64,000 nt of DNA from Candidatus Bathyarchaeota archaeon. Its GTDB lineage: Archaea; Thermoproteota; Bathyarchaeia; Bathyarchaeales; Bathycorpusculaceae. The stretch is taken from assembly GCA_963828195.1 (NCBI GenBank), contig CAWHDT010000005.1:416001-480000 (forward strand). Direction: 5' to 3'. A program made the position numbers and the translations under genes. Below the pieces are notes generated by a model. That model had not been told where the DNA came from. It saw only the letters and a program-made list of their open reading frames with translations, and made no database searches. Shown one piece after another: positions 1,704 to 23,758 of the stretch; within the stretch, counting starts at the first letter, position 1; each line of letters starts with the position of its first letter.

Positions 1704-1719
1704 TAAAAAAGGGGGAGAG

Positions 1720-2037: not shown

Positions 2038-2065
2038 TTTTTTGTTTCCTCAAAACCATAATAGG

Positions 2066-2774: not shown

Positions 2775-2836
2775 GAGTCTGAACCAAATATTTGACGTCT
2801 CAAATCAACTCCAATGCTCTTTGAAAACATAATGGG

Positions 2837-2874
2837 TGGTCACCTAATTTGTGGCTTCTGCGAAAAAGTGACCA
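2837..2874. promoter_or_regulatory. inverted-repeat operator TGGTCAC-N24-GTGACCA
   Basis: Second copy of the 2066-2105 motif, upstream of the methyltransferase. Confidence 0.65.
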
Positions 2875-2876
2875 AG

Positions 2877-3746: not shown

Positions 3747-4010
3747 CAACTTGGCAATAACCAAGCGGAAGAAGAAGAAGAAAAATTGTTTTCACCAGCT
3801 TCTTCTTCTTTTAAAAATAATTTTTTAGATGGCTGCATTAAATCCGGGTTCTTTAGAAGAACAACATTTGAATTTTAGGTGTTGTTGTTCTTTCAAAAAA
3901 AAGTTCTCCAAAGCCGTTCACCCCAAAGATTCAAACCCCAAACCAAAAAAACAACCCAAAACAAGCTCTGAACGTTAATTCGCTACCCTATAGACCTACC
4001 TACTATTTGT
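3747..4010 (+). repeat. modular hairpin repeat R2, copy A (modules M1-M2-M3)
   Basis: GCGGAAGAAGAAGAAGAAAAATTGTTTTCACCAGCTTCTTCTTC hairpin, AAGAACAACA..TGTTGTTCTT hairpin and CCTATAGACCTACCTACTATTTG block, shared with 8505-8570 and 62800-63020. Confidence 0.85.
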
Positions 4011-7357: not shown

Positions 7358-7364
7358 CGAGTTT

Positions 7365-8093
7365 TCACTTGCTTGAACCCAGTTCTTTGATGTAGCCTTC
7401 GACTGCGTCGTCGCTTAACATTTCCATCTTCTTAGATGCGACAGATATGACGGCGATTTTTATTCTTGGAGGCAGCTGCCTTGCGTCCAGAGCCTTGATT
7501 AAGCATTTTACTGCGAGTCTGATGCTGTTTTCCAATGTTAAGTCTTCGCGGTATTCTTCTTTTAGAATTGAAACAACTGTTTCTCTTCCTGCGCCTAATG
7601 CTGTGGCTTTGTAGCCTCTGTATGTTCCGCTTGGATGTGTCCCGAAGACTTTGGTTCCTGTTTTGTTGACTCCTCCGAAAATCAGGGAAACGCCGAATGG
7701 TCTGACTCCTGCATGCTGCGTGTACATTTGTTGGATGTCGCAGATTCGTTTGGTTACGACTTCTACGTCTATGGGTTCGTCGTAGGTTAATTTGTTACTT
7801 TGAGCGTATATCCTTGCTTGGTCGATGAGTATTCGGGCGTCTGAGCTTAAACCCACTATAGCGGCGCCGATGTGGTCGTCTACCCGAAAGATTTTCCATG
7901 AGTAACCTGCTTCTTCAAGGACCTCTATGTTTTCTTCTGACCCGAGGACAAGCCCTTCTGGACATTGGATGCCAAGTATGGTGGCTCCGCGGTTAACTAA
8001 CTCCATTGCGTATTCGACTTGGAAGAGTCGTCCGTCAGGCGAGAAAACTGTTATCGCACGGTCATATGCTCCTGGTGCTGCAAATACTGACAT
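7365..8093 (-). CDS. psmA: proteasome subunit alpha
   Basis: YDRAITVFSPDGRLFQVEYA signature, RPFGVSL. Confidence 0.97.
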   Translation of the reverse strand: MSVFAAPGAYDRAITVFSPDGRLFQVEYAMELVNRGATILGIQCPEGLVLGSEENIEVLEEAGYSWKIFRVDDHIGAAIVGLSSDARILIDQARIYAQSNKLTYDEPIDVEVVTKRICDIQQMYTQHAGVRPFGVSLIFGGVNKTGTKVFGTHPSGTYRGYKATALGAGRETVVSILKEEYREDLTLENSIRLAVKCLIKALDARQLPPRIKIAVISVASKKMEMLSDDAVEGYIKELGSSK

Positions 8094-8232: not shown

Positions 8233-8710
8233 GGGATTTCCGGTTTTGATTTTTTGGATTTTCCAGATCGCGTTCGGTATGTTTTTTGCAGATATTTTTT
8301 AGTTGCGACTTTTGGGCTGGCGTAAGTTGCGACTTTCCGCCTTGGGTCTTTGCGTTTTGGGCTGCTTTTTTGGTTTGGGGTTTGAAGGTGTTTGTGTGTT
8401 GCGACTTTGGGGTGGGCGGATTGCGACTTTCCATGTTGAGTGCATGTTGGAGTTATTGTCGGTTACGGGCGGGATTTTTTGGGTTGCAGCGGCTGTTTTT
8501 CTTCAAAAGAAGAAGAAGCTGGTGAAAACAATTTTTCTTCTTCTTCTTCCGCCTGGTCATTACCACGTTGCTCAACTGAACCCACTTAATAGTTAAAAAT
8601 CTCCATGGAACAAAACCGCCCAGCCATCACCTACGCCAAAAACGGGCACTTACTGTTCAGCCACCCCCAAAAAACCCGATGACATGACCCGGGCTCCAGT
8701 TAGAAGTCAG
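8233..8710 (+). repeat. terminase-derived repeat R1, copy 1 (interrupted by an R2 module)
   Basis: Four TTGCGACTT motifs shared with 17701 and 23040. The 3' part reads LKISMEQNRPAITYAKNGHLLFSHPQKT then a frameshift to DDM. Confidence 0.8.
8505..8570 (-). repeat. R2 copy B (module M1 only)
   Basis: Reverse-complement near-match to 3747-3812. Confidence 0.85.
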
Positions 8711-8791
8711 CAACAACGCCGTGGACCAACACGATACTTAAAATCCTCAAAAGGAATTCGGAGAAAAGCCATTCTCTGACATTTGCAGTTG

Positions 8792-8930
8792 CTAAAGTTT
8801 TTCGTAAATCCAGTTCATGATTGTTTAAAGTGTGTCTTTAGTGAATCCAATGTGTCCAGCTTCGTAGAATCGGGCGCATTTTGGGCTTCCGTGTTCAAGA
8901 AGCAGATAGTAATCTTTTATGGGGAACTCT
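8792..8930 (-). pseudogene. C-terminal fragment of an alpha/beta hydrolase (FrsA/esterase-like)
   Basis: Minus frame reads EFPIKDYYLLLEHGSPKCARFYEAGHIGFTKDTL*TIMNWIYEKL*; internal stop, no start. Confidence 0.5.
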
Positions 8931-9011
8931 GGGGTACTATGTATTGCATACGCTCATAACCACGAGCAGACAAATATCCACAAGTTGCTTGTATGTAAAA
9001 CAGGTGATTGA

Positions 9012-9233
9012 ATGGAACCGATGGATAGAATAACGATCGACCCTGAAGTTATGGTTGGTAAACCAGTCATCAAGGGTACCCGCATCACAGTGCAGCTGAT
9101 TGTTCAACTTTTGGCAAATGGGGCAACAGAAGCTGAAATACTAAATGACTACCCAGACTTGAAAAAAGAAGACATTAAAGCTGCCCTCTTATATGCATCC
9201 GAATGCCTTGGTCGCGAAGTTATTCCTGTTTAA
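9012..9233 (+). CDS. DUF433 antitoxin
   Basis: RITIDPEVMVGKPVIKGTRI...YPDL..EDIKAAL signature. Confidence 0.92.
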   Translation: MEPMDRITIDPEVMVGKPVIKGTRITVQLIVQLLANGATEAEILNDYPDLKKEDIKAALLYASECLGREVIPV

Positions 9234-9242
9234 GCCCAAAAT

Positions 9243-9288
9243 CAACTTGTGATTATCACTGAAAGGAGAATTCGCATAGTTTCATAAT
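9243..9288 (+). pseudogene. possible C-terminal remnant of a DUF5615 PIN toxin
   Basis: QLVIITERRIRIVS* directly after DUF433 resembles the usual C-terminus of its partner toxin. Confidence 0.4.
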
Positions 9289-9527
9289 CGGTCACATTCC
9301 ATGTAGCGCGGACATTACCTCTTATGGAGACACTTTAACCCTCAACTTGTTCCTTTAATTTGTTCTTTTTGTTGTGATTGTGATTATAAAAACAGTTTTT
9401 GTAAAAAACATGTAACGTGAGTTTTGTGATGATTGTGGAGTTCGCTGCGCCCTTTGGGTTTTGCTTTGAGATAGAAACGGAAATTAAGATTTGTGTGTTA
9501 ATATCCTAGAGCGTTTTTGGTGTTGTT

Positions 9528-10250
9528 ATGCCACGTTTTATAGAGGAAAACGTTAGGGGTCAGTTGGTTGCGGCTTTTGAGAACTTGGTTAATCCTGTGG
9601 ATCTTGTTTTCTTTACCCAAAAAGATTGCGCTGCCTGCGTATATCAGGGGGAGCTGTTACGAGAAGTCAGTTCATTATCAAGCAAATTGACCCTGAAAAG
9701 TTATGACTTCGTTTTAAACGGCGATGAAGCTATGAATTACAAAATAGATAAGATTCCGGCAACAGCAGTTGTTGGCAAACGTGACTATAGAATCCGCTTC
9801 TTTGGTTTAACCGCGGGCTTTGAATTTAAAACGCTTATAGAAGACATCATCATGGTCTCGAGCGAACGCACAGGTCTCGACCCAAGACTCGAAATTTTAG
9901 TGAAGGCACTTCCAAATCCAGTGCACCTGCAAGTAATGGCGTCCCTGACTTGTCCACACTGCCCAAAGGCAGTGCAGGCTGCGCATCGCTTCGCTTTTCT
10001 TAACGAAAATATCCGTTCAGACATGGTTGACCTCAGCGTATTTCCCTATATAGCACAAAAATACAACGTAACGGGAACACCTAAGACCATCATAAACGAA
10101 AGCTAATCATTTGTAGGCGCATACCCTGAAGCCGCCCTTTATCTGGAGATACTAAAAGCAGTAGACCCACAGCAATACCAGAAAGTCGTAGAAGAAATCA
10201 CGAAAGAAGCCAACTTAGCTCAGGGCATGAGCACAGCCTACCCACTTTAG
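9528..10250 (+). pseudogene. protein-disulfide oxidoreductase (two thioredoxin folds) with an in-frame TAA
   Basis: CAAC and CPHC motifs. After TAA at 10104-10106 the frame continues SFVGAYPEAALYLEILKAV... to TAG 10250. Confidence 0.8.
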
Positions 10251-10458
10251 CATTCGGCGGCAGGATTTTTTAGCTGTTAATTTACAAAAATGGAAAGCCG
10301 AAGGAAAAAACCTTAGAAATTTCTGTATCTGATTATGCGGATACTGTTAAGTTATTTGTCAGGGGATTTTCCAGTTTATTTTCTCTAGTTAGTCAACTAG
10401 TAAAAAGTTTTTGGAAACTAATGAAAATCTAAAATAGATCTTCAGCAAACTCTATTCT

Positions 10459-10941
10459 ATGAGAAAAAGGAAATATGTTTTCCTCATAATTGCAATAGCT
10501 GTACTTATAGTACTTCTATCCGTTTCGCTTTTTGTTATCAATCCTGTTCTTGACCAAAAAAAGCAAGAACCAAAAGCAACTCCAAATAGTAGTAGTTTTC
10601 CATCGCCCTCGCTGGTAACAATAACAGGTGAAATTCAACTAGACTCTAGCTTCTTTATAGAATTAGGTACCCCCCTAGAAGGTGGAGGGTCACATTATTA
10701 TCTGCAAGACCAACAATCAGGCATTAAATATTATTTGCTTAATGGTGACGGAACATTTTTTAGCGGTTTGGATTCACCTCAAATAGGTTGGACAGGGGAT
10801 AATAGTTCTGGAAAACAATTTCAAGTTTCTGGATTTGTAAGCGCTGGAATGTATCGATGCGTCAATCTTACGAACTCAGGACCAAATGGTTTGCAATTAT
10901 TAAATACTCTGACGATAGTTAATGGAACAGAAATATCCTAA
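10459..10941 (+). CDS. hypothetical membrane-anchored exported protein
   Basis: Basic N-terminus, TM helix, Ser/Pro linker, then an OB-like beta domain. Confidence 0.7.
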   Translation: MRKRKYVFLIIAIAVLIVLLSVSLFVINPVLDQKKQEPKATPNSSSFPSPSLVTITGEIQLDSSFFIELGTPLEGGGSHYYLQDQQSGIKYYLLNGDGTFFSGLDSPQIGWTGDNSSGKQFQVSGFVSAGMYRCVNLTNSGPNGLQLLNTLTIVNGTEIS

Positions 10942-11114
10942 TCTCTGGTTACCTTTCATATTGCTAATTCTTGGCAGCCTAAAAAGAGTCATGACAAATA
11001 ACTTAACAGTATCGATTATGCGTAATGCTTTTAAGAATGGCGAGTTAAATGCAACAGACATCGATCAGCCAGTTAACTATCTATTAGTTTATCGTTTATA
11101 CGGGGAGTTTAAAA

Positions 11115-12305
11115 ATGCAGTATAGAACTGTACCTAAAAACGGCGATAAGTTGTCAGCTCTTGGATTTGGAGCCATGCGGTTACCGCTAAAGGGACAAAA
11201 CCTCGATGAAGAACGCGCAATAAAACAAATTCGTTATGCAATCGACAACGGCGTAAACTATGTTGATTCAGCGCCACCCTATCATGGTGGTGAGAGCGAG
11301 AAGGTGCTTGGAAAAGCCTTGTTGGATGGCTACCGCAAAAAAGTAAAGATAGCCACAAAACTTACCCCGTTTCTGCTAAGTAAAGCCGAAGACATGGACA
11401 GAATATTAAATGCATCGCTGCAAAAACTGCAAACTGATCACATTGACTATTACCTTCTGCATGGGCTTGAAGAAGAGGTTTGGAAAAAACTGCGAGCCTT
11501 TAACGTTTTACAATTTTTGGAAAAAGCAAAAGCCGATGGAAAAATCGTCAACATAGGCTTTTCATTTCACGGGTCCATTGAAACCTTCAAAGAAATCATA
11601 GATGCAAATGACTGGACGATGTGTCAAATGCAATATAATTTTATGGATGAAAAAGTGCAGGCGGGAACGGCAGGCCTGAAGTATGCTGCTTCGAAGAATC
11701 TTGCGGTTATGGTTATGGAGCCGCTGAGGGGCGGAGCATTAACCGATAAGCTTCCAAATGAAGTAAAGCAACTTTACGATGACGCTAAAATTCTGAGGTC
11801 TCCGGCTGAGTGGGGTCTTCGCTGGGTGTGGAATCATCCGGAAGTGACGGTTGTTCTTTCAGGAATGAATATGAAGAAACAAGTTGCCGAAAACGTTAAA
11901 ACCGCGGAGACAGCGTTTCCATGCTCAATGGAACCCACCGAGCTTGCAACTATCAAAAATGTAGCTGAAGCTTATAGGCGCCTTATCAAGGTTTCATGCA
12001 CGGGCTGCCGATACTGTATGCCGTGCCCTTCCGGAGTCAATATTCCCGCCAACTTCAGAATCTACAATGACTACTGCATGTTCAGCGATAAAAAAAGATC
12101 AAGACTGATGTATGCGTTGATGTTAATGGGGGGATTCGGCGGTAAACGGTCCGATGCCTCACTATGTATAGAATGCAAAAAATGCGTAGAACTTTGCCCC
12201 CAGCACATAGATATTCCTCAACAGCTTAAATCGGTTTTAAAAGATATAGGTGGCTCCAAAACTGAATCGGTAATTGCCACACGAAGTAGCGTGCTTCGAA
12301 AATAA
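11115..12305 (+). CDS. aldo/keto reductase with C-terminal 4Fe-4S dicluster
   Basis: SALGFGAMRLP, MEPLRGG, CTGCRYCMPCP and CIECKKCVELCP. Confidence 0.93.
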   Translation: MQYRTVPKNGDKLSALGFGAMRLPLKGQNLDEERAIKQIRYAIDNGVNYVDSAPPYHGGESEKVLGKALLDGYRKKVKIATKLTPFLLSKAEDMDRILNASLQKLQTDHIDYYLLHGLEEEVWKKLRAFNVLQFLEKAKADGKIVNIGFSFHGSIETFKEIIDANDWTMCQMQYNFMDEKVQAGTAGLKYAASKNLAVMVMEPLRGGALTDKLPNEVKQLYDDAKILRSPAEWGLRWVWNHPEVTVVLSGMNMKKQVAENVKTAETAFPCSMEPTELATIKNVAEAYRRLIKVSCTGCRYCMPCPSGVNIPANFRIYNDYCMFSDKKRSRLMYALMLMGGFGGKRSDASLCIECKKCVELCPQHIDIPQQLKSVLKDIGGSKTESVIATRSSVLRK

Positions 12306-12436
12306 CGTTCAAAACCTGCATGAAAACGTTTTTTAGCCGTTTGTTATTCACAGAACAATGTCACTATGGGCAACCCAAAATACTGTTTCAGTAAGTGTTA
12401 AATTTTGGTTAAGACGCCATTTTATACGGTGAAAGT

Positions 12437-13006
12437 TTGTCACAAGTTGAAAAAGGGCACGGCGCAAAAGGATCAGACGAAGCTAACTTAAACGCTGTTT
12501 TGAATGCTGCAAAAAAGCGGGCGGAGCAGTTGGGAATCAAGTCTGTTGTTGTGGCGTCCACCAGTGGAGATACAGGAGTGAAAGCGGTGAAAATGTTTAC
12601 AGGATATAACGTTGTTGTGGTAACGCATAGCACTGGCTTTAGTGGACCAGATGTTCAAGAGTTGATACCGGAGAATCGGGAACTGATTCTTAAGGCTGGT
12701 GGCAAAATCTTGACCACGACCCACGCGTTTGGAGGATTAGGTCGGGCAGTTAGAAGAAAGTTTAACACGTACCAAACCGATGAAATCGTTGCGAATACGT
12801 TGCGGGTTTTTGGTCAAGGAACCAAAGTTGCGGTTGAAATCGCAATGATGGCGGCTGATTCTGGGCTCATAAGCGTAAAAGAAGATGTAATTTCCATAGG
12901 AGGATCAGGCAGTGGAGCTGACACGGCGCTTGTGATTCAACCAGCCAATGTTCAAGATTTCTTCGATGTAAAAGTTCGGGAAATCATTTGCAAACCCTGG
13001 CTCTAA
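12437..13006 (+). CDS. pyruvate-kinase alpha/beta domain protein (MTH1675-like)
   Basis: VVVASTSGDT, VVVTH, GQGTKVAVEIAMMAADSG, GADTA. Confidence 0.85.
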   Translation: MSQVEKGHGAKGSDEANLNAVLNAAKKRAEQLGIKSVVVASTSGDTGVKAVKMFTGYNVVVVTHSTGFSGPDVQELIPENRELILKAGGKILTTTHAFGGLGRAVRRKFNTYQTDEIVANTLRVFGQGTKVAVEIAMMAADSGLISVKEDVISIGGSGSGADTALVIQPANVQDFFDVKVREIICKPWL

Positions 13007-13458
13007 AAAAACTGGAAGCGTGTGTACGCTCCCACTTAGCTGCTTATGGTAGGTTAAAATTTTGATCAAACTATAGCTTGTTAATCGTGACTTCACACTG
13101 TGACAACAAAGCTCAATATAACCGTGTTTTCTCTCATTGTATTGAAGAAAACAGCCAGAAAGAATTGTTTTTCTGGATATGGTGAAAAGCGTAAGAGCTG
13201 CGATAGACCGAGGCTGAGAAGGCTCTGGTAAATCCATTTTATCAGAACAATTAGATTTTGCATTTTTATTTTCCTCCCAAAGTTCCAGAGCCTCAGCATA
13301 CTCTTTAGGAAATTGATTTATTCATTTAGTTTTTCGTGGTCTCTTCTTTAAACCCAGTGTCTTGGTATAAGAAAAAATTTATCAAATTTTCTTCGTTTTA
13401 GAACATTAACCTCTGATGTGCAGTGGAATGATAGAATAGATTCCATCTCAAAACGTCT

Positions 13459-13779
13459 TCAAACATCATTACTTTTTAAAATTCTGCTCAAGGCATCAAG
13501 CCAGAAACCAAATTTTTCTTTACTATCAACTGATAATATCTTGTTATCTTTATCAACAACCATTTCTACAACGCCATTCAAAATTACCATAGGTAAGGGC
13601 TCTGATTTTTGTTCACCGTCAAGTTTTTGCCTCTCAACTTTAACAATTTGAATACCGTCAGCTTTGATGAAGGTATTTTTATCCAGCCAAAACCCTTCTT
13701 GACATTCATCCAAGCTATTCCAGCCCAAATGTTCCTTCAGCAGTTCCTGCGTTGTCTTCTTATCGAGACCTTTTCTCAA
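13459..13779 (-). CDS. hypothetical protein
   Basis: 106-aa ORF with protein-like composition and GGAG upstream. Confidence 0.55.
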   Translation of the reverse strand: MRKGLDKKTTQELLKEHLGWNSLDECQEGFWLDKNTFIKADGIQIVKVERQKLDGEQKSEPLPMVILNGVVEMVVDKDNKILSVDSKEKFGFWLDALSRILKSNDV

Positions 13780-14149
13780 AACACCACTCTCCCATCATTT
13801 GCCAATCGCTTATTTTAGTTTTTGTAAAATTGTGGGGTTTAACACAAAATACAAAACTGGGTTAAAATCTCATGAATAGCCAGGAATATAGGTTGCAAGC
13901 TTTTGCCATGGGTTTAACAAAGTATTGGTTACAATCTCAGCTTAAATTTATTTTAGATCTCCGATGAAAAATAAATGGCTAAGCAGGGGTCGGATTTGAC
14001 TCCTTGAAAAGTGGAAAACATAACCCGCATGCCCCCTTTTTCTGTCATTCAATCCATATTTGGGGCTGCCAGGTTAATTATGACTTGAATCTGAGTAGCT
14101 TTTAAATAGATAGAATTGTGCATTATTATACAATTAGAGTTGGCGACAC

Positions 14150-14482
14150 TTGCTGTTTAAACATAAGAGCGTCGTAAAAGTTCAAATGGCGGATTTGGAC
14201 GGCGAGAAAGAAAACCTCGCGAATTTTTTGCGTAGCCAATCCAAACTGAATTCATCAATAACTTCCGAGGGATTGGAACTGAATATAACGGATGTTTCCG
14301 CCCATGCATTGGCAAGAATGGTAACAAAGTTTGTTTACCACAAGAATTTAAACGGCACGCATTGGGTTACCGTGGAAAACAACGTGGTAAAAATCAGCAG
14401 GTTCAAAGTCACAGCTAAGAAAAAAGAAAAACATGAGAAAAGCAAGCCCCATCAAAACATTGTACAAAGCTGGGGATTGTAA
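14150..14482 (+). CDS. ribosomal protein eL22-like protein
   Basis: LANFLRS...SAHALARMVTKFVYHKNLNGTHWVTV...KISRF parallels eL22 ([25 protein letters not shown]...YELRYF). Confidence 0.6.
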   Translation: MLFKHKSVVKVQMADLDGEKENLANFLRSQSKLNSSITSEGLELNITDVSAHALARMVTKFVYHKNLNGTHWVTVENNVVKISRFKVTAKKKEKHEKSKPHQNIVQSWGL

Positions 14483-14572
14483 AACGCATTTCTTATTATT
14501 ATGTAGTCTTGGTGTCAGCTGCAATTCTCTTTTTACTTAAAATCAGTTGTATCTGACAAGTGCGTTTCTGGC

Positions 14573-14920
14573 TTATCCGGATTCTCTTCTGGTGGTTTTG
14601 CATTTTGTGCATCTGAAGAATGTAATTGTTGAATGAATAGTCTCGTCTGCAGCTTCAACAGACCAAGTTTCGCTTTCGGTATTTCCGCATTTTTCGCAGA
14701 CCACATGGATTGTTGGAAGCAGCCTAAGCATTGCCTCTTTGCTTTGGTCTATAACAGCGATTTCAGCTCCTTTGCCAAGATGTAGGCTTATTTTTTTGTT
14801 TGATTCTTTAGGCTCCGTTGGTTTTTGGTATTTGCATTTTGGGCATCTAAGTGTGGAGGAGTCTTTTTTCGTTGTTTGAAGTATAGATCCGCATTTTGGG
14901 CAGAAGTCCATTGCATTCAC
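14573..14920 (-). CDS. transcription factor S (TFS/RpoM)-like paralogue
   Basis: FCPKCGS..CPKC and CEKC...ADE...TFFRCTKC zinc ribbons. Confidence 0.85.
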   Translation of the reverse strand: MNAMDFCPKCGSILQTTKKDSSTLRCPKCKYQKPTEPKESNKKISLHLGKGAEIAVIDQSKEAMLRLLPTIHVVCEKCGNTESETWSVEAADETIHSTITFFRCTKCKTTRRESG

Positions 14921-15326
14921 CTGAGTGGAGGCTTTTTAGCTAAAATGATTCTTATGTATTGCGACTCTTACGTTACAAATAATTCAATTAATGTTCTATT
15001 TGGTGCAAATGGTACCTAAATCGAGCGGAAACACAGATGCATTCCCTTTTTTATGTCGGTTGAAGCTTGTTTAATCAGCCTTGTTCACTAGGCTGAATCA
15101 ATAAAGTTTTTATTTTAACTCTGAAATATTCTCTATTAGGCATGAAGAACCAAAAAAAGAACCGCAAAGAAATCTTGGCCGATATTCTAAATCAACAAAG
15201 TCCATAGCGGTTCGTAAAATATTGAATTCTTAAACGAGAACATGCGCCTTAGGTTCTGGCAAAGGCGGCAGTTAGTGGATGTACCAAATCTTATAACTTC
15301 ATCCATGAAGGAAAACATCTCGCAGA

Positions 15327-16094
15327 TTAACCCAAGTCTATTCGGAGCAACTTACCTATTAATAATTCAAGTTCGCTGAACCTTTCTCTATCCAATATAC
15401 AGTCTGCTTTGAATTTGGCTTCATTAAAGTTAGCAGTTGAATTTCTTATCAGGATAGTTTTCATACCTATTTGTTCTGCACCAGCAACATCCACAGCAGG
15501 GTTATCTCCAACATACACGCAACTTGCAGGCGCGATTTTTAGAAGATCACAGATTTTGATAAATGGTTGCTTGTGAGGTTTTGTTTCCTTTGTGTCCTCT
15601 CCTGAAACAACAATTGCATCAAAAAATTCGATTAGTCCAGACGAGCATAGCCTTTGATATTTCATTCCTTTTAGCCCATCAGTATCGCTAACCATTCCTA
15701 AATGCATATTCTTCATCTTAAGAGAAACAAGCAAATCCACCGCTCCAGGATATGGAAGAGAATATTTGACTATGGTACGCCAGTAGCTCAGAACGGCTTC
15801 AGATAAGACTTGCCGGGGCAGCTTCAAAGCGGGAGTGCAGTATCTTTTAACTGCTTCTGAAAACCAAACTTTTCTATCATAAATCAGCTTTGCAGACATT
15901 TCCCTATCAACATCAGAAATAAGGGCAACCATAGCTTCTTTGTTTATTTTGCAACCTCGTTCTTTTCCATAATCTGCAAGAATATTGGCAACTTCAATGT
16001 GGGCAAGTTCTCTACAAGTATAAGAGTCCATTAATGTGCCATCAAAATCGAATATTACCCCAAATTGTGAGGGCGCTCTAGCGGCTTCCAACAC
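15327..16094 (-). CDS. HAD-superfamily hydrolase
   Basis: FDFDGTL, KP, YVGDNPAVDVAGA. Confidence 0.9.
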   Translation of the reverse strand: MLEAARAPSQFGVIFDFDGTLMDSYTCRELAHIEVANILADYGKERGCKINKEAMVALISDVDREMSAKLIYDRKVWFSEAVKRYCTPALKLPRQVLSEAVLSYWRTIVKYSLPYPGAVDLLVSLKMKNMHLGMVSDTDGLKGMKYQRLCSSGLIEFFDAIVVSGEDTKETKPHKQPFIKICDLLKIAPASCVYVGDNPAVDVAGAEQIGMKTILIRNSTANFNEAKFKADCILDRERFSELELLIGKLLRIDLG

Positions 16095-16140
16095 ATCAAC
16101 TCACTGTCTTCTGCATACTTTTTCCAGCCCGCACTTTGCG

Positions 16141-16824
16141 CTATTTGTCAAAGCCAAGTATCATATTGAGCTTATCCAAAGCTCGGTCTGAGGCTTCTTT
16201 GTCTGGAAACTCAAGGTCATCTTCCTTTGGTTCGGTGCCGGCAAAAAGGCAAAGTGCCTCAATACCCTTTCGTTTTGACAAGCCAAATACCAACCCTGAG
16301 AAGCCCATGAAGGGTCCTTTGTATCTTATGTCGATGCTGTATTTTTCTTTCATCTCAGCGACTAATTCTTTGCTGGTAGCAGCGCAGCATATTTTCTTGT
16401 CCTTTGAACCGTAACCTGCAATAACTATTATTCTTTTCACGTGGTTTTCAGCTAGGAAATCTAGAACTTTTATGGCAACTTCATATTGGCCTTCAAAATT
16501 TGCGTGATATCCCTTTGTAATGATTAAAGAAGGGGAGAAACTAGTGTAGAACTCGACTTTGGGAAAGTCTGCTTCGCCGGATTCAACAATAACTCCTCCA
16601 AAGCCAGGCAACGTTGGATCGGCAGCATAAGAAGGCTTAGTTTCGTAGATGGAAGGCATATGCATGGAATACAGGTCTGCAATTTTCGTTGCTTTGGTTT
16701 TCGCTATGAGACTATCCATAACAAGTTTGCCTATAGACCTCAACCCGGGCGATCCAACAACAGCTATGGGGTCGATAACTTTGGCGTCGCCGCGGCGTTC
16801 TATCCACGTTTCTTTTTTCATCAA
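16141..16824 (-). CDS. PAC2-family proteasome assembly chaperone
   Basis: GSPGLRSIGKL, GQYEVA, GFSGLVFGL..GIEALCLFAGT. Confidence 0.85.
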   Translation of the reverse strand: MMKKETWIERRGDAKVIDPIAVVGSPGLRSIGKLVMDSLIAKTKATKIADLYSMHMPSIYETKPSYAADPTLPGFGGVIVESGEADFPKVEFYTSFSPSLIITKGYHANFEGQYEVAIKVLDFLAENHVKRIIVIAGYGSKDKKICCAATSKELVAEMKEKYSIDIRYKGPFMGFSGLVFGLSKRKGIEALCLFAGTEPKEDDLEFPDKEASDRALDKLNMILGFDK

Positions 16825-16835
16825 TGCATCCTCAG

Positions 16836-17621
16836 TTAAGTGACGTAGGCGGGCTTCTTACCTGAACCGGCCATTTGTTCTCTTATTCGACGCTCAATTT
16901 CAACCAATTTCGCAATTGTCTCATCCATTTGCGCCACTTGCTTGTCCATCGGCTCCATATCTACTTTCAAATTCAACATTGAAGACAAAACTTTCAAAGC
17001 CGCCTTCGCCGCCCGGGGATCTATAACGTATTCTCCAGTGGGAGTTTGGTACCCGTGAGTTTCCGCAAGCAAACAGGCTCCTTCCACGTTTTTCTTTTTG
17101 GCAAGACCTGTTATTATGCCGTTTTCGCCACCGATGACTCCATCCTCCAGAAACTGGGCTCCATGCGTTTTAGCTTCTTCAAGTAGAGCTAATGTTGTCG
17201 TGGTACAGTAAACGTTTGGTGCCTCAAAGGGTCTCTCAGTTACGTAGGCTGCAACGGAGTATATTCTCTGCACGCTATTTTTGATTGCCCAATCCAACAC
17301 CGCATCCGCAACCTCGTACTGGCCTTCAGGAGAATAAGCCTGCGAGTTGCCCGTGAGAAAAACGATTGTTCGTCCCGATTCTTCTTTGAATAGGTGGAGT
17401 TCGTTTCGAAGAAGCTCAACAAGTCCGTCTTCTTTAATAACGACAAAGGGCGGAAAATACTTTGAGTAAACTTCCCCAACCAGTTCAGCTTTGAGTTGCT
17501 GAATGAGGTAGTCAACTGAAAGTTTCCCAATGTAAGCTGTTCCAGGCAACCCACACACGAGTATTAATTGATTAGGCGTAAACTCCTTTAGCATTTTGAT
17601 TTCAACACTCATAAGATGCAA
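16836..17621 (-). CDS. PAC2-family proteasome assembly chaperone
   Basis: GLPGTAYIGKL, FPPFV, GQYEVA, CLLAETHG..DPRAAKAAL. Confidence 0.9.
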   Translation of the reverse strand: MHLMSVEIKMLKEFTPNQLILVCGLPGTAYIGKLSVDYLIQQLKAELVGEVYSKYFPPFVVIKEDGLVELLRNELHLFKEESGRTIVFLTGNSQAYSPEGQYEVADAVLDWAIKNSVQRIYSVAAYVTERPFEAPNVYCTTTTLALLEEAKTHGAQFLEDGVIGGENGIITGLAKKKNVEGACLLAETHGYQTPTGEYVIDPRAAKAALKVLSSMLNLKVDMEPMDKQVAQMDETIAKLVEIERRIREQMAGSGKKPAYVT

Positions 17622-17700
17622 ACCAACTTCGATTCAAGATAAGTAGTGACACAAATGAACTTTTTGTTTGAACCCCTGCAGAACACCCAAAAGCACCCGC

Positions 17701-18225
17701 TTTCCAGATCACGTTGGTGTGTTTTTGGCAGATATTTTTAAGTTGCGACTTTTGGGCTGGCGTAAGTTGCGACTTTCCGTTTTGGGTCTTTGCGTTTTGG
17801 GTTGCTTTGGTTGTTTGGGGTTGAAAAGGCTTTGTTTGTTGCGACTTTGGGATGGGCGGATGCGACTTTCCATGTTGAATCTATGTTGACGGCACTGTCG
17901 CGTATGGGCGGGTGCCGGGGGATTCTTTGTTCGCCGGGCAACATGAAAGACCGTGAACACCAACAATTCGACGCCGCCACCAGCACAAACAAAGAAAAGC
18001 TTACACCGGCTAAACCGCCACAGAACAAAACCGTCCAGCAACCCCCCGCCACCGACAAAACCCAACAACTAAACAAACAACAACAACACCTACACCAAAA
18101 AACAAACGCCTAATGTTTAGCCATTCCCAGAACAGCCACGATGACATGACTTGGGCGCTGGCTTGGCAGTTTCGCGGTGCATGCAAACAGGTCTTCTGGT
18201 TGTTGGTGCAGTGCTTCCACACTGA
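17701..18225 (+). repeat. terminase-derived repeat R1, copy 2
   Basis: Highly similar to 23040-23596. The 3' end reads MFSHSQNSHDDMTWALA then a frameshift to AVS...GAVLPH*. Confidence 0.85.
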
Positions 18226-18337
18226 GATAAAGCCGAGCCTTTTCCGTCTCCGCTTTTTAGACTTTTATGTTGCTTTGTAGGTTTTTGTTGCGGCAAAGTT
18301 AAGTAGTACTTTTGTTAAGTTGTACTTGTGTTAAGGC

Positions 18338-18565
18338 ATGACTGAAGTTGTAGTTACCAGGAAGGGGCAGGTAACCATACCCATAGAGATAAGAAAAAAG
18401 TTTGGCATAGAGGAGAGCTCAAAAGTAGAGATTGTTGAGCAAAACGGCATGATCGTGATTAAAAAGCGCCCGAGCATTTTTGATTTGGCAGGCAGCGGCG
18501 CTGGAAAAGGCAACGTTGCCGAGTTGAAAAAGATGCTGGATCAAATGAGGGACGAAGATGCCTGA
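18338..18565 (+). CDS. AbrB/MazE-family antitoxin
   Basis: VTRKGQVTIPIEIRKKFGI; overlaps vapC. Confidence 0.92.
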   Translation: MTEVVVTRKGQVTIPIEIRKKFGIEESSKVEIVEQNGMIVIKKRPSIFDLAGSGAGKGNVAELKKMLDQMRDEDA

Positions 18566-18947
18566 CAGGCGTCTATATGACACCCGCTTTTTTGTTGAGT
18601 ACTTCTACAGCGAGGATGGAGAGCGTTTAAGAAAGCTCAAGGAGGAATTGCGGTTAGTTAAGGAAAGGATGGTTTCATCATTAACCGTCCATGAGATTCA
18701 CCGCATCAATTTTCTGCGGCAGGGAAAAGATGTTGCAGACCTTAGAAGCAGCACGATAAGACGCGACTTTAAAGTCATCGACGTCGATTACCAGACAGCA
18801 ATAAAAAGTGCGGAAATAAGAACCAAACACAAAATGCCAATGGCTGACAGCGTAATCGCAGCAACAGCCCAAATCTATGAATGCACCCTATTTTCAGACG
18901 ACAATCACTTTAAAGAAATAGAGAACCTAAAAACAAAATGGTGCTAA
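18558..18947 (+). CDS. vapC: VapC PIN-domain toxin
   Basis: YDT, E, ADSVIAATA, SDD.HF acidic residues intact. Confidence 0.92.
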   Translation: MPDRRLYDTRFFVEYFYSEDGERLRKLKEELRLVKERMVSSLTVHEIHRINFLRQGKDVADLRSSTIRRDFKVIDVDYQTAIKSAEIRTKHKMPMADSVIAATAQIYECTLFSDDNHFKEIENLKTKWC

Positions 18948-18994
18948 ATGACCTTATTCACCCAATCGCTCAGTTATCGCACATTTGCCGCTGT

Positions 18995-19097
18995 CCAGCA
19001 ACTGAATAAACAACCAATATACCTACACCAAAAACAGAGACCTACAATAATGCCACCGCAAAACAGCCTCAACATGATTTGTGCGCTATCGCTCTTT
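18995..19097 (+). repeat. terminase-derived repeat R1, short copy 4
   Basis: Frameshifted QQLNKQ/YTYTKNRDLQ/PQNS/NMICALSL; homologous to the 3' ends of copies 2 and 3. Confidence 0.65.
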
Positions 19098-19156
19098 GAG
19101 AAGCAGCTTTTTCAAATTTATAAGACGCTTCCTGCATTCATATCAAGTAGTGATCT

Positions 19157-19378
19157 TTGATGGCGAAGACAGTACACTTAGATGAGGAAGATCGTAAACT
19201 TCTCGCTGAAACCAAGCAAAAGCTCGATGAAGCAACCAAGCTTATGGGGGAACGGATGGAAACCTTCGAAATTTTAAGCGACCCCGAAATGGTAAAAGCC
19301 ATAGAGGAAGGGCAAGCAGACATTAAAGCTGGAAGAGTAAAAGAGTTACGGACACTTCTAAAGGAAGACGCCTGTTGA
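19157..19378 (+). CDS. RelB/Phd-like antitoxin
   Basis: ETFEILSDPEMVKAIEEGQADIKAGRV C-terminal antitoxin motif. Confidence 0.75.
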   Translation: MMAKTVHLDEEDRKLLAETKQKLDEATKLMGERMETFEILSDPEMVKAIEEGQADIKAGRVKELRTLLKEDAC

Positions 19379-19425
19379 AACCCAAGTGCACGGTTGTTTT
19401 ATCCAGACAAGCAGAGCATTTCTAG
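19375..19425 (+). pseudogene. N-terminal stub of a RelE/ParE toxin
   Basis: TTG overlapping the antitoxin stop, reads MKPKCTVVLSRQAEHF*; ends at the helicase stop codon. Confidence 0.55.
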
Positions 19426-21695
19426 CCTTCCAGCATCACTAAAAGCCTTTTCAGAATTATGCTTGCTGCTTTCTTGTCTAAGGGTTTGTTTTCGTTTCCG
19501 CATTTGGGCGAGTAGATGCATGAGGGACAACCGTCTTTGCACTCGCAATTCTCAATCAGCTCTAAGGTTTTTTCGAGTAAGGGTTTTATGTTTTGGTAGA
19601 GGTTTTCTGAAATTCCGATCCCGCCTTCAAAGCCGTCATAAATGAAAATCGTTGGGTTCCCCGTGTCCGGATGCAGAGGAGTCGATAAGCCTCCAATGTC
19701 CCATCGGTCACACATCGCAAAAATCGGCGACATCGCAATCATCGCATGCTCAACCGCGTGAATTCCCCCGTCAAAATCGAGCTCGCCATCTTCGATTTCC
19801 CTCTTGATCTCCTCAGGAATAATAAACCACATGCCAACCGTTGAAAACGATAACGGCGGGAGATTAAGCGGTTTTCTCTCAACAACCTCATCATATGATT
19901 TGGTGACATAGGTGTGGTAAAATTCCGTTGTAATTAATTCGCCTAAGCCAACCTGGATTCCGATTTGTTTTTCTTCAAGAGTTCTCTTTATGGCGACATC
20001 AACGGTTTTTAGTGCTTCCGTGTAGTAGTTGACGTTTTCCTGTGTGACTTTAGCTGTTAATTTGTTGAGGTCTAATTCTTCAGAGATGTAAGTTTCGCCC
20101 TGATGAAGCAAAACTGCGCCCGCGTATGCTTCCTCGTAGGCCTTGTTTAAGGAGAGGGTTTCAAGTACGGTTCCGTTACAGGTTACGGTGACGGTTTTGT
20201 CGGAGATACTCTCCAACGTTACAACCTCGACAGGCCTTGCAGTTCCCGAATAGACGTATCCCCTCGGCGTTTTGCGAACCAGATTTTGTCGTTCCAGAGC
20301 TTGAACGCTTTCTTGGAATAGTTCGGGGAAATATTTTTTGTCGGCCTCTGTCAGGGGCAGCTCGCTTGCCGCACACATAATGTGCCCCAAAGAAATGTAG
20401 CGGTTATGCAAATCAATAATGGCTTGTTCATGTGACCTTCCAAAGAAGTCTTTGGGATGCTTCATGAAGTATTGGTCAAGAGGGTTCTGAAAAGCAACCA
20501 GCGTTACAAGTGAATCTGCGTTGGTTCTGCCTGCTCTTCCCGCCTGCTGCCAAGTCGATATGACAGTTCCCGGGTAACCAGAGATAATCACTGAATCCAA
20601 AGAACCAATATCGATGCCCAATTCGAGTGCGTTGGTTGACACAACACCGATCAAGCTTTTTGTCTTTAGCCTGTTCTCTATTTCCCGCCGTTCTTGAGGC
20701 AGATAACCTGCTCGGTAAGCTGTAACGGAGTTGGCTAGTTTTGGTGATCTTTTTTTGAGGTCTTCTTTGGTCCATCTTGTTATAAGCTCAGCCATTTGGC
20801 GGGATGTTGTAAAGCAGAGGGTTTGGAGGTTTTTTGTGATGTTTAGGGTTAGGAGGTCTTTGGTTTCTTGATGAGTGGATCTTCGTGTGGTGTTGGTGTC
20901 GTCGATGAATGGTGGGTTCCAGAAGAGGAATGATTTTTTTCCTCTTGGGGCGCCGTCGTTTGAGATGATTTCGAAGTCTTTTCCCGTCAGTTTCTTGGCG
21001 TGTTCTTGGGGGTTTGCGATGGTGGCTGATGAGAGGATGATTTGTGGGTCGGCGTGGTAATAATTGCATACTCTCATAAGACGTCTTAGGAGCATGGCTA
21101 CGTTTGAGCCAAATACGCCGCGGTAAACGTGGGCTTCATCGATTATGACGAATTTGAGGTTTCCAAGAAAGCTTCGCCACTTATAGTGCCATGGAAGGTA
21201 CTGGTGGAGCCCATATGGGTTGCTTAAGATGATTTTACTGTTTTCTCTTATGTTTGCCCTTTGACTTTGAGGAGTATCACCATCGTAAACGTTAGGGTAA
21301 GCTTGGATGCCCGTTTCTTTTTCCAGTTCTCTTAGAACCTTTAGCTGGTCATTTGTGAGCGCCTTAGTCGGGTAAAGGTAAAGTGCAGTCGCTTTGGGAT
21401 CTTTTGTGAGAGCTTCGAGGACAGGAATGTTGAAAGCTAAGGTTTTTCCTGAAGCTGTCGGAGTGACAATCGCCACGTTCTTGCCCGCTCTTGCTTTGTT
21501 TATGGCTTCAGCCTGATGCGAATAAAGATGGATGTCTCGGGTCAATAAGCAATTTTGAATATTTTGCGGCAGGGATTTTTCTAACTCGCCAAAACATGCT
21601 TCGTGCGGGGGAATTTCTTGTATGTGCACTATCTGTTTTTTGTAGCCTTGCATGTGCTTTATGCTTCGGATAAAGTCGTCTATCAAAGGTTCCAC
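19422..21695 (-). CDS. DEAH-box helicase with DUF1998 (MrfA/SftH/Hrq1 family)
   Basis: PTASGKT, DEAH, SAT, QQAGRAGR and C-terminal CECKDGCPSC. Confidence 0.95.
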   Translation of the reverse strand: MEPLIDDFIRSIKHMQGYKKQIVHIQEIPPHEACFGELEKSLPQNIQNCLLTRDIHLYSHQAEAINKARAGKNVAIVTPTASGKTLAFNIPVLEALTKDPKATALYLYPTKALTNDQLKVLRELEKETGIQAYPNVYDGDTPQSQRANIRENSKIILSNPYGLHQYLPWHYKWRSFLGNLKFVIIDEAHVYRGVFGSNVAMLLRRLMRVCNYYHADPQIILSSATIANPQEHAKKLTGKDFEIISNDGAPRGKKSFLFWNPPFIDDTNTTRRSTHQETKDLLTLNITKNLQTLCFTTSRQMAELITRWTKEDLKKRSPKLANSVTAYRAGYLPQERREIENRLKTKSLIGVVSTNALELGIDIGSLDSVIISGYPGTVISTWQQAGRAGRTNADSLVTLVAFQNPLDQYFMKHPKDFFGRSHEQAIIDLHNRYISLGHIMCAASELPLTEADKKYFPELFQESVQALERQNLVRKTPRGYVYSGTARPVEVVTLESISDKTVTVTCNGTVLETLSLNKAYEEAYAGAVLLHQGETYISEELDLNKLTAKVTQENVNYYTEALKTVDVAIKRTLEEKQIGIQVGLGELITTEFYHTYVTKSYDEVVERKPLNLPPLSFSTVGMWFIIPEEIKREIEDGELDFDGGIHAVEHAMIAMSPIFAMCDRWDIGGLSTPLHPDTGNPTIFIYDGFEGGIGISENLYQNIKPLLEKTLELIENCECKDGCPSCIYSPKCGNENKPLDKKAASIILKRLLVMLEG

Positions 21696-22981
21696 TCCTC
21701 ATAAAGCTTGGAAAATAATGTTCCGAGGGTTAGCAGGTCTTGCCGGTTGTGCTCAACAATTGCGACGAGCGGTCCAGCATTTTTTGTTCTCAAGTAAGTT
21801 TCGTAGAAGTGAGGAACCAAGGCGCCCGGAATGTTGATGTCTCGCTTTATTCCGATGTATTGTTCGACGGTTTCTAGTTTACAATCCGCTAGTTTGTGAC
21901 GCAGTGCCCGTCTGGTGAAGTGGAGAACATCAAAATGCGGGTTATCCAGCGGCGCATCTAACCCATAGTAAGCTAATCTTTGCTTAATGTATGGAATATC
22001 AAAGCTTCTGCCATTATAGGTTATGAGTGACAAGTTGGGTTCAAGCTGCGAAATAAGCGCCCAAATCGCGCTGGGTTCATCCTGAATGTCTCTTAGCAAA
22101 AACTGGCTTGTGCAAACATGAGTTTTGGCTGGTTTAGCTATGCCTAGTAGAATTATGGGTCGCTCTGACAGCCCTAAGGTTTCGATGTCTACGATGGCGA
22201 AGTCTTGATCTTGGCAGAACCCGGCTAAATAATGAAGCAGCGGATGCGATTTGGGGAAGCGTTGCCATAGCCATTTTTGAATTTGGGGGATTTCTTTTTT
22301 GTTTATTATTTTCATGAAGTCATGGGCTTGTTTTTTCCAAAGGGGGTGATTTTCAAGGTCTACTATTGTTGTGTATCCTTGTTGTTTTAGGGTTTGTTCG
22401 CGTGCAGGTCCTATTCCGGGAAGAGCTTTCAGGTCTGAGATGATTTGTTGTCTGCTTTCCTGGTAAGTTGCTTTTTTAAAGGCAGAAATGCGCGAAGCTG
22501 AGATGTGGTAACATTCTCCCTGTTGATTTGAAACAATCTCGCCAGCTATGGCGTCTTGGAGGTTTTTGCCTTCGTATTGTTTGATGAGTTTCTTTTCAAG
22601 GTTCAATGCCTCGTCGTATTCGCTGCTCCAAATCCAGCTTTCAACCGCCGATTCAGCGGGGTGTTCCGTGGTTTTTTCTGTTTCAGAAATTACCTCATAC
22701 TCTTTTGAACGAGCAATTCTCTCGCTTAGACTTTCAGCCGCCCGTGTCAACGCGATTTTTTCTTTGAAAGAACCATTCTCGCCAATTGCGGAAGCTTGAT
22801 TGCCAAAGCTTTTTTGAGCCAACATTTGAGCATAACGGTCATCCCTAAAACTTCGCAGCAGAAAAGAACCGCACACCTTGCAAAACCTGCTCTGCTCATA
22901 CTCCAGATTCGAATAGGTTTTGTTGCACTTTCTGCAAACGTATTCTATTGGCAATTTATGTTCTGCCTTAAGTCTGTGCAA
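21683..22981 (-). CDS. RNase H-like exonuclease (YprB/MrfB family) with N-terminal zinc ribbon and HhH
   Basis: DIETLGL, TYNGRSFDIP, HFD, HNRQD; CRKC..CKVC; PGIGP. Confidence 0.9.
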   Translation of the reverse strand: MHRLKAEHKLPIEYVCRKCNKTYSNLEYEQSRFCKVCGSFLLRSFRDDRYAQMLAQKSFGNQASAIGENGSFKEKIALTRAAESLSERIARSKEYEVISETEKTTEHPAESAVESWIWSSEYDEALNLEKKLIKQYEGKNLQDAIAGEIVSNQQGECYHISASRISAFKKATYQESRQQIISDLKALPGIGPAREQTLKQQGYTTIVDLENHPLWKKQAHDFMKIINKKEIPQIQKWLWQRFPKSHPLLHYLAGFCQDQDFAIVDIETLGLSERPIILLGIAKPAKTHVCTSQFLLRDIQDEPSAIWALISQLEPNLSLITYNGRSFDIPYIKQRLAYYGLDAPLDNPHFDVLHFTRRALRHKLADCKLETVEQYIGIKRDINIPGALVPHFYETYLRTKNAGPLVAIVEHNRQDLLTLGTLFSKLYEEWNL

Positions 22982-23039
22982 TGATTATAAAAGCCATTCT
23001 TTTATTTGGCCAAAAAGCCGAGGATAGCGTATTTAGCTG

Positions 23040-23596
23040 GGGATTTTTCAGTCTTAATTTTTTTAGATTTTCGAGATTTCGTTGGTGGGTTTTTGCAGAT
23101 ATTTTTAAGTTGCGACTTTTGGGCTGGCGTAAGTTGCGACTTTCCGCTCTGGGTCTTTGCGTTTTGGGTTGCTTTGGTTGTTTGGGGTTGGAAGGCGTTT
23201 GCGGGTTGCGACTTTAGGATGGGCGAATGCGACTTTCCATGTTGAATCTATGTTGACGGCACTGTCGCGTACGGACGGATGCCGAGGATCCTTTGTTCGC
23301 CGGGCAACATGAAAGACCGTGAACACCAACAATTCAGCGCCGCCACCCAGCACAAACAAAGAAAATCTCACACCAGCTAAACCACCACAGAACAAAACCG
23401 CCCAGCCACCCCCACCACCGCCAACCACGCCAACAACAAAACAAACAACAACACACCCACACCAAAAACAAACACCTACAACCTCAGCCACCCGCAAAAC
23501 AGCCACAACAACATGACATAGGCACTAACTTTAGCGGTTTCCTGCAGTATGCAGGTGCCTCCTACGGGTGCAGGAGTTGTAATGCTTGCACACTAA
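23040..23596 (+). repeat. terminase-derived repeat R1, copy 3
   Basis: Four iteron motifs. The 3' end reads NKQQHTHTKNKHLQ/SHPQNSHNNMT*ALTLAVSCSMQVPPTGAGVVMLAH*. Confidence 0.85.
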
Positions 23597-23646
23597 AGGA
23601 AAGGATTACGCCCTGTCGAGATATTATAAAACAAAGTCTAATCACA

Positions 23647-23692
23647 CTGCTTCTTACAAGGCAGCCGCTCTACTGGGCTGAGCTGTCAAGGC
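23647..23692 (-). pseudogene. degenerate 5' half of tRNA-Thr(TGT)
   Basis: GCCTTGACAGCTCAGCCCAGTAGAGCGGCTGCCTTGTAAGAAGCAG: D arm GCTC/GAGC, anticodon loop CTTGTAA, no T arm. Confidence 0.65.
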
Positions 23693-23758
23693 ACCAGATT
23701 CCACCAACAAATAAAAACCAACCCAAATAAAAGTCACTCTTAAAGTTATCAGACTGTG

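Follow-up and report, generated by a model that had tools for sequence, protein, structure and literature searches.

Repeat R1 of a Bathyarchaeia genome as a plausible relic of terminase-tail and toxin-antitoxin cassette arrays fused to a dispersed promoter-proximal repeat

The window is a 64,000-nucleotide (nt) stretch of a Bathyarchaeia genome (G000; 2.83 Mb in 9 contigs) and contains the dispersed repeat R1, with three copies of about 0.5 kb and a short one, all on the plus strand where a first-pass annotation had placed them, with which repeat search and blastn agree. R1 is, on comparison of its copies, a non-coding composite of two unrelated pieces: module A at the 5' side and, at the 3' side, a tail that corresponds to the end of the gene for a viral terminase large subunit (TerL). 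The preferred reading, held at somewhat better than even probability, is that R1 is the decayed head of an array of terminase tails and toxin-antitoxin (TA) cassettes, fused to a dispersed promoter-proximal repeat. The features of the three loci are listed below (aa, amino acids).

7365..8093, minus strand: psmA (proteasome alpha; Pfam Proteasome 2.9e-48), divergent from R1 copy 1
8283..8480, plus strand: module A of R1 copy 1, G+T-rich, with four TTGCGACTTT boxes
8490..8557, no strand assigned: small hairpin repeat GAAGAAGAAG...CTTCTTCTTC, an insertion that separates module A from the tail in copy 1 (blastn)
8593..8710, plus strand: TerL tail of R1 copy 1 (TerL aa ~394-438), with a 45-nt internal deletion and the 3' end lost
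16836..17621, minus strand: PAC2-family gene (proteasome assembly chaperone family; Pfam PAC2 1.1e-44), divergent from R1 copy 2
17723..17920, plus strand: module A of R1 copy 2, with a ~22-nt leader from 17701 that is common to copies 1 and 3
17921..17980, plus strand: linker between module A and tail of R1 copy 2, found only in copies 2 and 3 (95% identity)
17981..18262, plus strand: TerL tail of R1 copy 2 (TerL aa ~376/385-465), with stop at 18223-18225 and a ~40-nt post-stop extension common to other relic tails
18338-18565, plus strand: vapB (AbrB/MazE-type antitoxin; Pfam)
18558-18947, plus strand: vapC (PIN toxin; Pfam)
18995..19097, plus strand: short TerL tail consisting of the core; it forms the distal repeat of the vapBC cassette and has 72% identity with the tail of copy 2
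21683..22981, minus strand: RNase_H_2-domain gene (Pfam), first of an operon with a MrfA/Hrq1-like helicase, divergent from R1 copy 3
23090..23287, plus strand: module A of R1 copy 3; the leader in common with copy 1 starts at ~23031
23327..23596, plus strand: TerL tail of R1 copy 3 (TerL aa 378-463/465)

The gene next to copy 1, psmA, is the first of the psmA-SBDS-Rrp4-Rrp41-Rrp42 operon. In the repeat search of the window a 198-nt family was identified at 8283-8480 (70%), 17723-17920 (the reference) and 23090-23287 (92%), and copies 2 and 3 are linked by two further two-copy blocks of 91-95% identity. Blastn against the own genome aligns copy 2 with copy 3 over 478 nt (86.8% identity, E 2.4e-156) and with copy 1 over 214 nt (86%), and the short copy is alignable to the 3' part of the others. 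An intact frame is present in none of the copies and no long open frame is conserved among them. The order at copy 2 is module A, 60-nt linker, long tail, vapB-vapC and short tail, the vapBC cassette (18338..18947) being placed between two tails; this copy is an array head with one cassette. The three window copies are relics in decay, and nothing in them points to a present function. No terminase, portal, capsid or integrase gene was identified among the 19 window open reading frames (ORFs) spanning 4.4-26.6 kb and scanned with Pfam, in keeping with the first-pass annotation, and tblastn with viral proteins gave no further match in the window besides R1.

The palindromic repeat GAAGAAGAAG ... 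CTTCTTCTTC (~55-68 nt) found inside copy 1 is present at two more places in the window (~3747-3815 and ~62911-62958), has about 65 further genome matches distributed over all nine contigs, and was also found in the relative G004 between module A/promoter regions and tails; it could be a hairpin family resembling miniature inverted-repeat transposable elements (MITEs) or terminators. A tRNA-like stretch at ~23640-23720 of the window was unsupported by ARAGORN or Rfam.

The terminase origin proposed for R1 stands for its 3' ~200-270 nt and fails for its 5' half, module A. Contig C6 carries an intact TerL gene of 465 aa (phrog_2, terminase large subunit, E 4.5e-42; Terminase_6N 1.7e-14) whose C-terminus reads ...LKIAMEQNRLAIPYHRRLCQQLNEQQYTYSKSGHLQFSHPQNSHDDMTWALTLAV...VLPH, and the peptide that had been read from the 3' half of R1 (LKI.MEQNR.AI.Y ... 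QQLN.QQ.TY...GHL.FSHPQNSHDDM.WAL.LAV...LPH*) closely follows that C-terminus. With the own TerL as query, tblastn matched aa 385-465 in copy 2 (E 1.9e-10), aa 378-463 in copy 3 (E 1.4e-7), aa 394-438 in copy 1 (E 1e-3) and aa 421-465 in a further copy, c580, located at 580-581 kb of contig C5 (E 6.7e-13). Only the last ~70-90 of the 465 codons are represented, instead of the whole RNase H-like domain that had been claimed. The hidden Markov models (HMMs) Terminase_6C, Terminase_3C and TerL_nuclease, searched in six frames, detect no R1 copy: in a stop-tolerant search of the whole genome at E<=10, Terminase_6C (PF17289) found only the intact C6 gene (24.5 bits), and PF17288 and PF20441 had no match. 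A terminase hit is thus lacking for R1 at the HMM level, and it is the direct comparison with TerL that rescues the terminase claim.

Module A has no tblastn match to TerL and is not terminase-derived. The order on C6 is module A, a 133-aa ORF, a 174-aa ORF and TerL, with module A placed 1.1 kb upstream of the start of the intact TerL and beyond two ORFs; the motifs that the first-pass annotation had read there as 'CDFWAGV..DF / IYVDGT' (GxD/VDxT) are therefore a chance reading of the repeated box. The copies of module A differ by 1-nt indels, which rules out a conserved frame; a minus-strand gene for a small basic protein was rejected on the same frame-shifting indels. The BLASTN census of copy number supports dispersal, as had been expected, but separates the two parts: module A (~195 nt) is present in 23 copies on 8 of the 9 contigs and on both strands, 18 of them lacking a tail, and the 3' part occurs at far fewer loci. 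Tail and upstream module A were identified together at only five loci of the genome, plus the short copy (blastn and tblastn), the tail loci being the three window copies, the short copy, c580 and the 3' end of the C6 TerL gene, where intact TerS-TerL is preceded by module A on another contig.

The source of the tail is the TerL of a head-tailed (Caudoviricetes-type) provirus. The 174-aa ORF is TerS-like, and a Myb-like helix-turn-helix seems recognizable on reading its sequence. TerL homologues of 62-76% identity were identified on twelve IMG/VR contigs, all 12 with a homologue of the 174-aa ORF directly upstream; on the closest contig, genes for portal, scaffold and major head proteins come next. 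The matching portal-to-capsid module of G000 is located elsewhere, at 566-576 kb of C5 (portal 81.5% identical), and behind the C6 TerS-TerL pair come an RNase H (RVT_3) gene and an IS240-type transposase (C6:20900-24500); the provirus has therefore been dismembered. Also present in the genome are an N-terminal fragment of TerL and a provirus-like region that carries an integrase and a TerL of its own. The C6 TerS-TerL pair stands alone, with no portal or capsid gene, and two paralogues of the 133-aa ORF that separates module A from TerS are found elsewhere in the genome (72-75% aa identity). On two IMG/VR contigs (L040 ~7330-7440 and L043 ~7350-7400) a sequence resembling a tRNA T-arm and acceptor (GGTTCAAATCCC...) was seen by eye directly after the TerL stop, which suggests that in these proviruses the terminase gene may abut the attachment site at the provirus end. 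Strand-biased hypermutation was considered for the C+A-rich tails and rejected: the substitutions in copies 2 and 3 are mixed transitions, and richness in C+A is already a property of the parental TerL 3' end.

Copies 2 and 3 are alignable across one truncated junction of module A, linker and tail, and so they were duplicated after coding was lost, a conclusion that the first-pass annotation had also reached. It had gone on to regard R1 as domesticated, the whole ~0.5 kb unit being one pseudogenised terminase nuclease domain that became a functional non-coding element and then multiplied. This is improbable. The terminase-derived tail, the junction shared by copies 2 and 3 with its duplication after truncation, and a tail core very well conserved even in the relics of two relatives speak for it; but it is already contradicted for the 5' half by the 23 copies of module A, by the 18 that are tail-less, by the 1.1 kb that separate it from intact TerL and by its lack of TerL similarity. 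No RNA structure, covariation or Rfam match was found in R1, the fold z-scores (0.41 and -0.18) giving no excess over shuffles. The frameshifts and indels of copies 2 and 3, which might have been shared, are mostly private, and these copies diverge by ~25% from the better-kept tails, both as expected of neutral decay. Their 3' ends represent different tail types, copy 2 and C6 lacking 3 nt that copy 3, c580 and the G004 tails all retain, which suggests that recombination among tails may have taken place.

It is similarly doubtful, at a low probability, that the copies go back to separate provirus insertions, each of which decayed independently in place. Several terminase genes and provirus modules do exist in the genome, and c580 has a different breakpoint, at a site where G047 carries intact TerS-TerL. 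Against this, copies 2 and 3 are 87% identical across the junction of module A, linker and tail; no other viral gene lies near any window copy, so that a prophage remnant around each copy, which the first-pass annotation had considered, was not found; and the relics share the post-stop extension, unseen after the intact TerL genes inspected.

The three window loci differ in their counterparts in the relatives. The psmA tail is present and better preserved at the orthologous place in G004 and G031; of module A, boxes 1-2 are kept in G031, a weak match remains in G004 and neither piece is found in the close relative G016. Copy 1 is old and is common to two other species; in G000 part of its tail is gone and an unrelated hairpin repeat has been added. 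Orthologues of the PAC2 site were identified in 4 of 20 relatives, module A and tail being absent in all 4; the RNase_H_2 site was matched in 12 of 20, with 8 loci used and both pieces absent in all 8. The copies at PAC2 and at the RNase_H_2/helicase operon are, as far as these genomes indicate, lineage-specific. At both loci homology breaks off 35-60 nt upstream and continues at other places in the relatives' genomes, which places copies 2 and 3 at rearrangement breakpoints. The cassette of copy 2 has its own distribution: the tail and vapBC block at 18049-18948 matches a unit of the G004 psmA array with 82.5% identity over 910 nt, and remnants of the copy 2 vapC are found in the psmA regions of G043 and G031. 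The same cassette is therefore located upstream of PAC2 in G000 and in the psmA array in G004, at different loci in different species. Finally, c580 lies in a ~3.5-kb insertion that interrupts the ribosomal protein operon between rpL30 and rpL15, a place occupied by intact TerS-TerL in G047 and by a tail relic in G016. In this insertion (within C5:572000-584000) module A, a MazF-type pair, the TerL tail and EVE-domain, bPH and Hsp20-like genes were observed, and a portal-scaffold-capsid module of a provirus stands at the same locus directly after secY.

The array reading draws on relatives within the genus. The last 90 residues of TerL were searched in 41 genomes of the genus, G000 included, and matches were obtained in 33, comprising many intact terminases and numerous short relics with stops or short frames. 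Many of these genomes have 4-8 matches each, most of them in open frames of 460-500 aa. Twenty-two regions were fetched from relatives and the 16 holding a relic tail were inspected, the recurring layout being tail, cassette, tail, as follows.

G047: TerS-TerL, AbiEii-type pair, relic tail
G004, upstream of psmA: four tails, with PIN/MazE-type cassettes between them
G004, upstream of an SSB-like gene: tail, RHH+PIN, tail
G035: tail, MazE+PIN, tail
G010, G043, G031, G016 and a second G047 site: tails beside MazE/CcdA+PIN, MazF or DUF2283 genes

Together with c580 and copy 2 of G000 these make 18 relic-bearing loci, and in 12 of them a Pfam-supported TA gene lies within about 1 kb of a tail; as a background, G000 has 30 PIN matches in its 2.83 Mb. 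The cassette ORFs are AbiEii, PIN, MazE/AbrB, RHH, CcdA, MazF, DUF2283 or unannotated. Seven pairs of cassette-flanking tails were examined, and in three of them (intact TerL and relic in G047, tails t1 and t2 on contig C1 of G004, and tails t2 and t3 of the G004 psmA array) the tails are 97-100% identical over a core of ~90-110 nt, the 3' parts of the same pairs being only 67-87% identical. A near-identical core with diverged 3' parts looks, by analogy, like the attL/attR repeats left when an incoming element recombines with its target. The relic tails of several genomes have in common ~40 nt beyond the stop that do not follow the intact TerL genes inspected, which sets the relics apart as a separate family. 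A second TerL clade (G010, G035) likewise has relic tails beside TA pairs, and the pattern is therefore not confined to one virus lineage.

A cassette-integration mechanism can be drawn from these relatives, and its probability is put at one half or slightly above. The 3' end of the terminase gene would be a recombination target in this genus, and small TA cassettes would enter by recombination within the ~100-nt core. Each entry would duplicate the tail and leave the cassette between two tails, and repeated entries would build arrays in which tails and cassettes alternate. The tails would thereby be active recombination sites, served by host homologous recombination or by a recombinase acting in trans. 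The arrays would outlast deletion of the terminase body, plausibly as addictive TA modules that resist loss, and module A might or might not have a part in this. The window would then hold three decayed array heads, the psmA copy being old and the PAC2 and RNase_H_2/helicase copies coming from one unit that was already truncated; since the last two stand at synteny breaks, their most likely origin is ectopic recombination or a duplication by way of repeat homology.

Several observations weigh against this mechanism and against the array reading. At 6 of the 18 loci the surroundings of the tail hold only small ORFs that lack annotation, or else have no TA gene supported by Pfam, and the TA adjacency is based on crude ORF calls. 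Four of the seven tail pairs have no identical core, among them the window's own pair at 72%; the att-like signature rests for this reason on the relatives, and the four pairs look older. Gene conversion between neighbouring repeats could mimic near-identical cores. The 5' ends of the tails vary (TerL aa ~376-418), which is looser than in a classical site-specific att site. No recombinase was identified among the cassette ORFs, the relatives' arrays being scanned over their listed ORFs, and the 5 tyrosine-recombinase (Phage_integrase) matches of G000 are all outside the window and none adjoins R1 or a tail. An empty site with both flanks conserved was seen for no window copy at the psmA, PAC2 and RNase_H_2-operon loci of the relatives, where homology is lost ~35-125 nt upstream and is not resumed on the far side. 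A circular or excised form of the cassette was not seen either, the metagenome contigs over the window (four DNA runs) being too short to tell and the repeat copies cross-mapping to one another, so that these runs gave no usable empty-site joint.

A further alternative, tentative and less than evenly probable, gives the leading part to module A and makes the tail a hitch-hiker: module A would be (a) a small divergent RNA gene or a cis-regulatory platform, its four operator-like palindromic boxes standing upstream of strongly expressed genes, or (b) a mobile element, non-autonomous and directed at promoter-proximal DNA. In the alignment of the 23 copies the mean column identity is 76%, with four nearly invariant boxes and variable spacers, a point in its favour. 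The boxes are two pairs of the quasi-palindromic AAGTTGCGACTT, which amounts to an internal duplication. A bias of orientation also speaks for it: in 17 of the 23 copies a gene transcribed away from module A lies within 350 nt of the box-1 end (typically at ~70-350 nt). The neighbours comprise psmA, PAC2, EF-1alpha, EF-2, the rpL3 operon, secE/Spt5, TFE-alpha, SSB-like, GcvH and thioredoxin genes. Outside G000, the box-pair pattern was found in 110 metagenome stretches, 80 of which were fetched and scanned with nhmmer; this gave 92 module A hits, 23 beside the same genes as in G000 and 69 elsewhere or with an unidentified neighbour. At the 38 distinct metagenome sites with enough flank, the nearest ORF (crude calls) is divergent in 27, co-directional in 10 and lacking in one, that is, divergent in 27 of the 37 having an ORF. 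The GcvH and L15 sites of G000 are shared with G016 and G004.

Other properties of module A count against this alternative. The box 10-mer occurs 78 times in the genome, 67 of them inside module A (about 5 expected by composition), which leaves no independent regulon signal, and the box as a general operator motif was rejected on the same confinement. On reading the sequences, each neighbour gene seems to have retained a TATA-like box of its own close to the start codon, so that module A would be placed upstream of the core promoter. No inverted repeat was seen at its ends, either in the repeat search of the window or in the 23-copy alignment, and full-length module A was found by BLAST only in G000 among 31 genomes, with partial matches in 6 of 18 congeners and in none of 12 other genera.

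RNAalifold on the 23 copies of module A gives 18 pairs with one compensatory change and a covariation term of +0.19, box 1 pairing with box 2 because AAGTTGCGACTT is a quasi-palindrome. Rfam identified in the window only a tRNA-Asp located elsewhere, with no matches over the copy 2 and 3 regions in E-value mode. An RNA gene or structured element was rejected on the lack of Rfam match, fold excess and covariation, and a long hairpin between the GT-rich and CA-rich parts of R1 on the lack of fold excess against shuffles. Module A as a viral pac/cos (TerS-binding) site is not supported: neither it nor any box array is present on the 12 related viral contigs, and none stands upstream of the intact TerS-TerL of G047.

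Some further observations concern module A and its neighbours. Two adjacent PAC2-family genes occupy 16141-17621 of the window and a third PAC2 gene is located on contig C1 (242.8-243.6 kb); module A is found upstream of PAC2 at both loci, at ~100 nt in the window and ~800 nt on C1. A second proteasome-alpha paralogue is located at 135 kb of C5. A contig of G004 (C39, ~1400-3000 of the extracted locus L006) contains a near-perfect fold-back palindrome centred near position 2205, and the two 'inverted copies' of module A there are probably one copy and an assembly artefact.

If the terminase 3' end is a landing site for cassettes, as the array reading has it, archaeal genomes and proviruses would have a new route to collect and exchange TA and defence modules. 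A virus gene would have supplied the recombination sequence, with an element-encoded integrase being unneeded, and the finding of one viral gene end scattered beside essential genes in many Bathyarchaeia genomes would be explained. This is of relevance for provirus prediction and for the annotation of metagenome-assembled genomes. Module A, for its part, is a clean repeat of biased orientation that stands, in a lineage still uncultured, upstream of genes for translation, transcription and the proteasome, and a candidate for either a regulatory module or a promoter-seeking mobile element. The cassette-integration mechanism is the interesting part, and no description of it was found in the portion of the literature covered by the search; the same portion held nothing describing terminase-tail repeats or module A, and supplements might list such proviruses. 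A bolder version, which is speculative and less probable than the array reading itself, would make this an integrase-less, integron-like system: the ~100-nt TerL 3' core would be the recombination site, TA and perhaps other defence cassettes would be captured and shuffled between tails, module A would mark the platform at promoters of essential, highly expressed genes, and the window copies would be worn-out platforms.

The known systems that come closest share only part of these properties. Integrative genetic elements may use the 3' end of a gene as their target and duplicate it on recombination, for which tRNA genes with attL/attR repeats and tandem accretion are the textbook case in archaea and bacteria. 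Like these, the cassette of the tail arrays stands between direct repeats of the 3' end of a target gene, with a near-identical core, diverged distal parts and tandem inserts at one site. Unlike these, the target is a viral terminase gene, the inserts are TA cassettes of 0.8-1.7 kb with no integrase of their own, the repeats are long (a ~100-nt core, 190-270 nt overall) with variable 5' ends, and the arrays remain where the target gene is gone. MITE-like and other short dispersed intergenic repeats are known in prokaryotes, and both module A and the hairpin repeat resemble them in forming tens of non-coding intergenic copies of 60-200 nt with lineage-specific expansion; module A differs in that no terminal inverted repeats were seen and that it has a strong orientation bias, an internal duplication and four conserved boxes.

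Decaying archaeal proviruses, as described in the covered parts of bioRxiv 10.1101/2023.08.24.554615 and PMC11697101, are comparable in that the tail derives from a Caudoviricetes-type TerL and that G000 retains TerS-TerL as a lone pair, a portal-to-capsid module apart from it and one more provirus. The difference is that here only one defined gene end has multiplied, has been fused to an unrelated repeat and is tied to TA cassettes; the same parts of these papers on Bathyarchaeia viruses and proviruses make no mention of a multiplied gene end with TA cassettes. The last comparison is with integron arrays and with clusters of attC sites lacking integron-integrases (CALINs). Unlike attC, the tail is not an imperfect palindrome and derives from coding sequence, and no IntI or attI was seen; single-stranded DNA folds of six 150-nt tails gave z values of -2.6, -2.1, 0.4, -0.4, 0.2 and -1.0 with no common hairpin, and attC-like hairpins were not seen (range -2.62 to +0.42). 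According to the sections of PMC9668308 covered, such arrays occur also in Archaea and comprise small promoter-proximal cassettes and a repeated recombination sequence, often with no nearby integrase, and TA systems are the leading annotated function of archaeal integron cassettes (10.5% of annotated cassette proteins). The tail arrays have the same composition: small, promoter-proximal and TA-rich cassettes with a repeated sequence between them and no integrase nearby.

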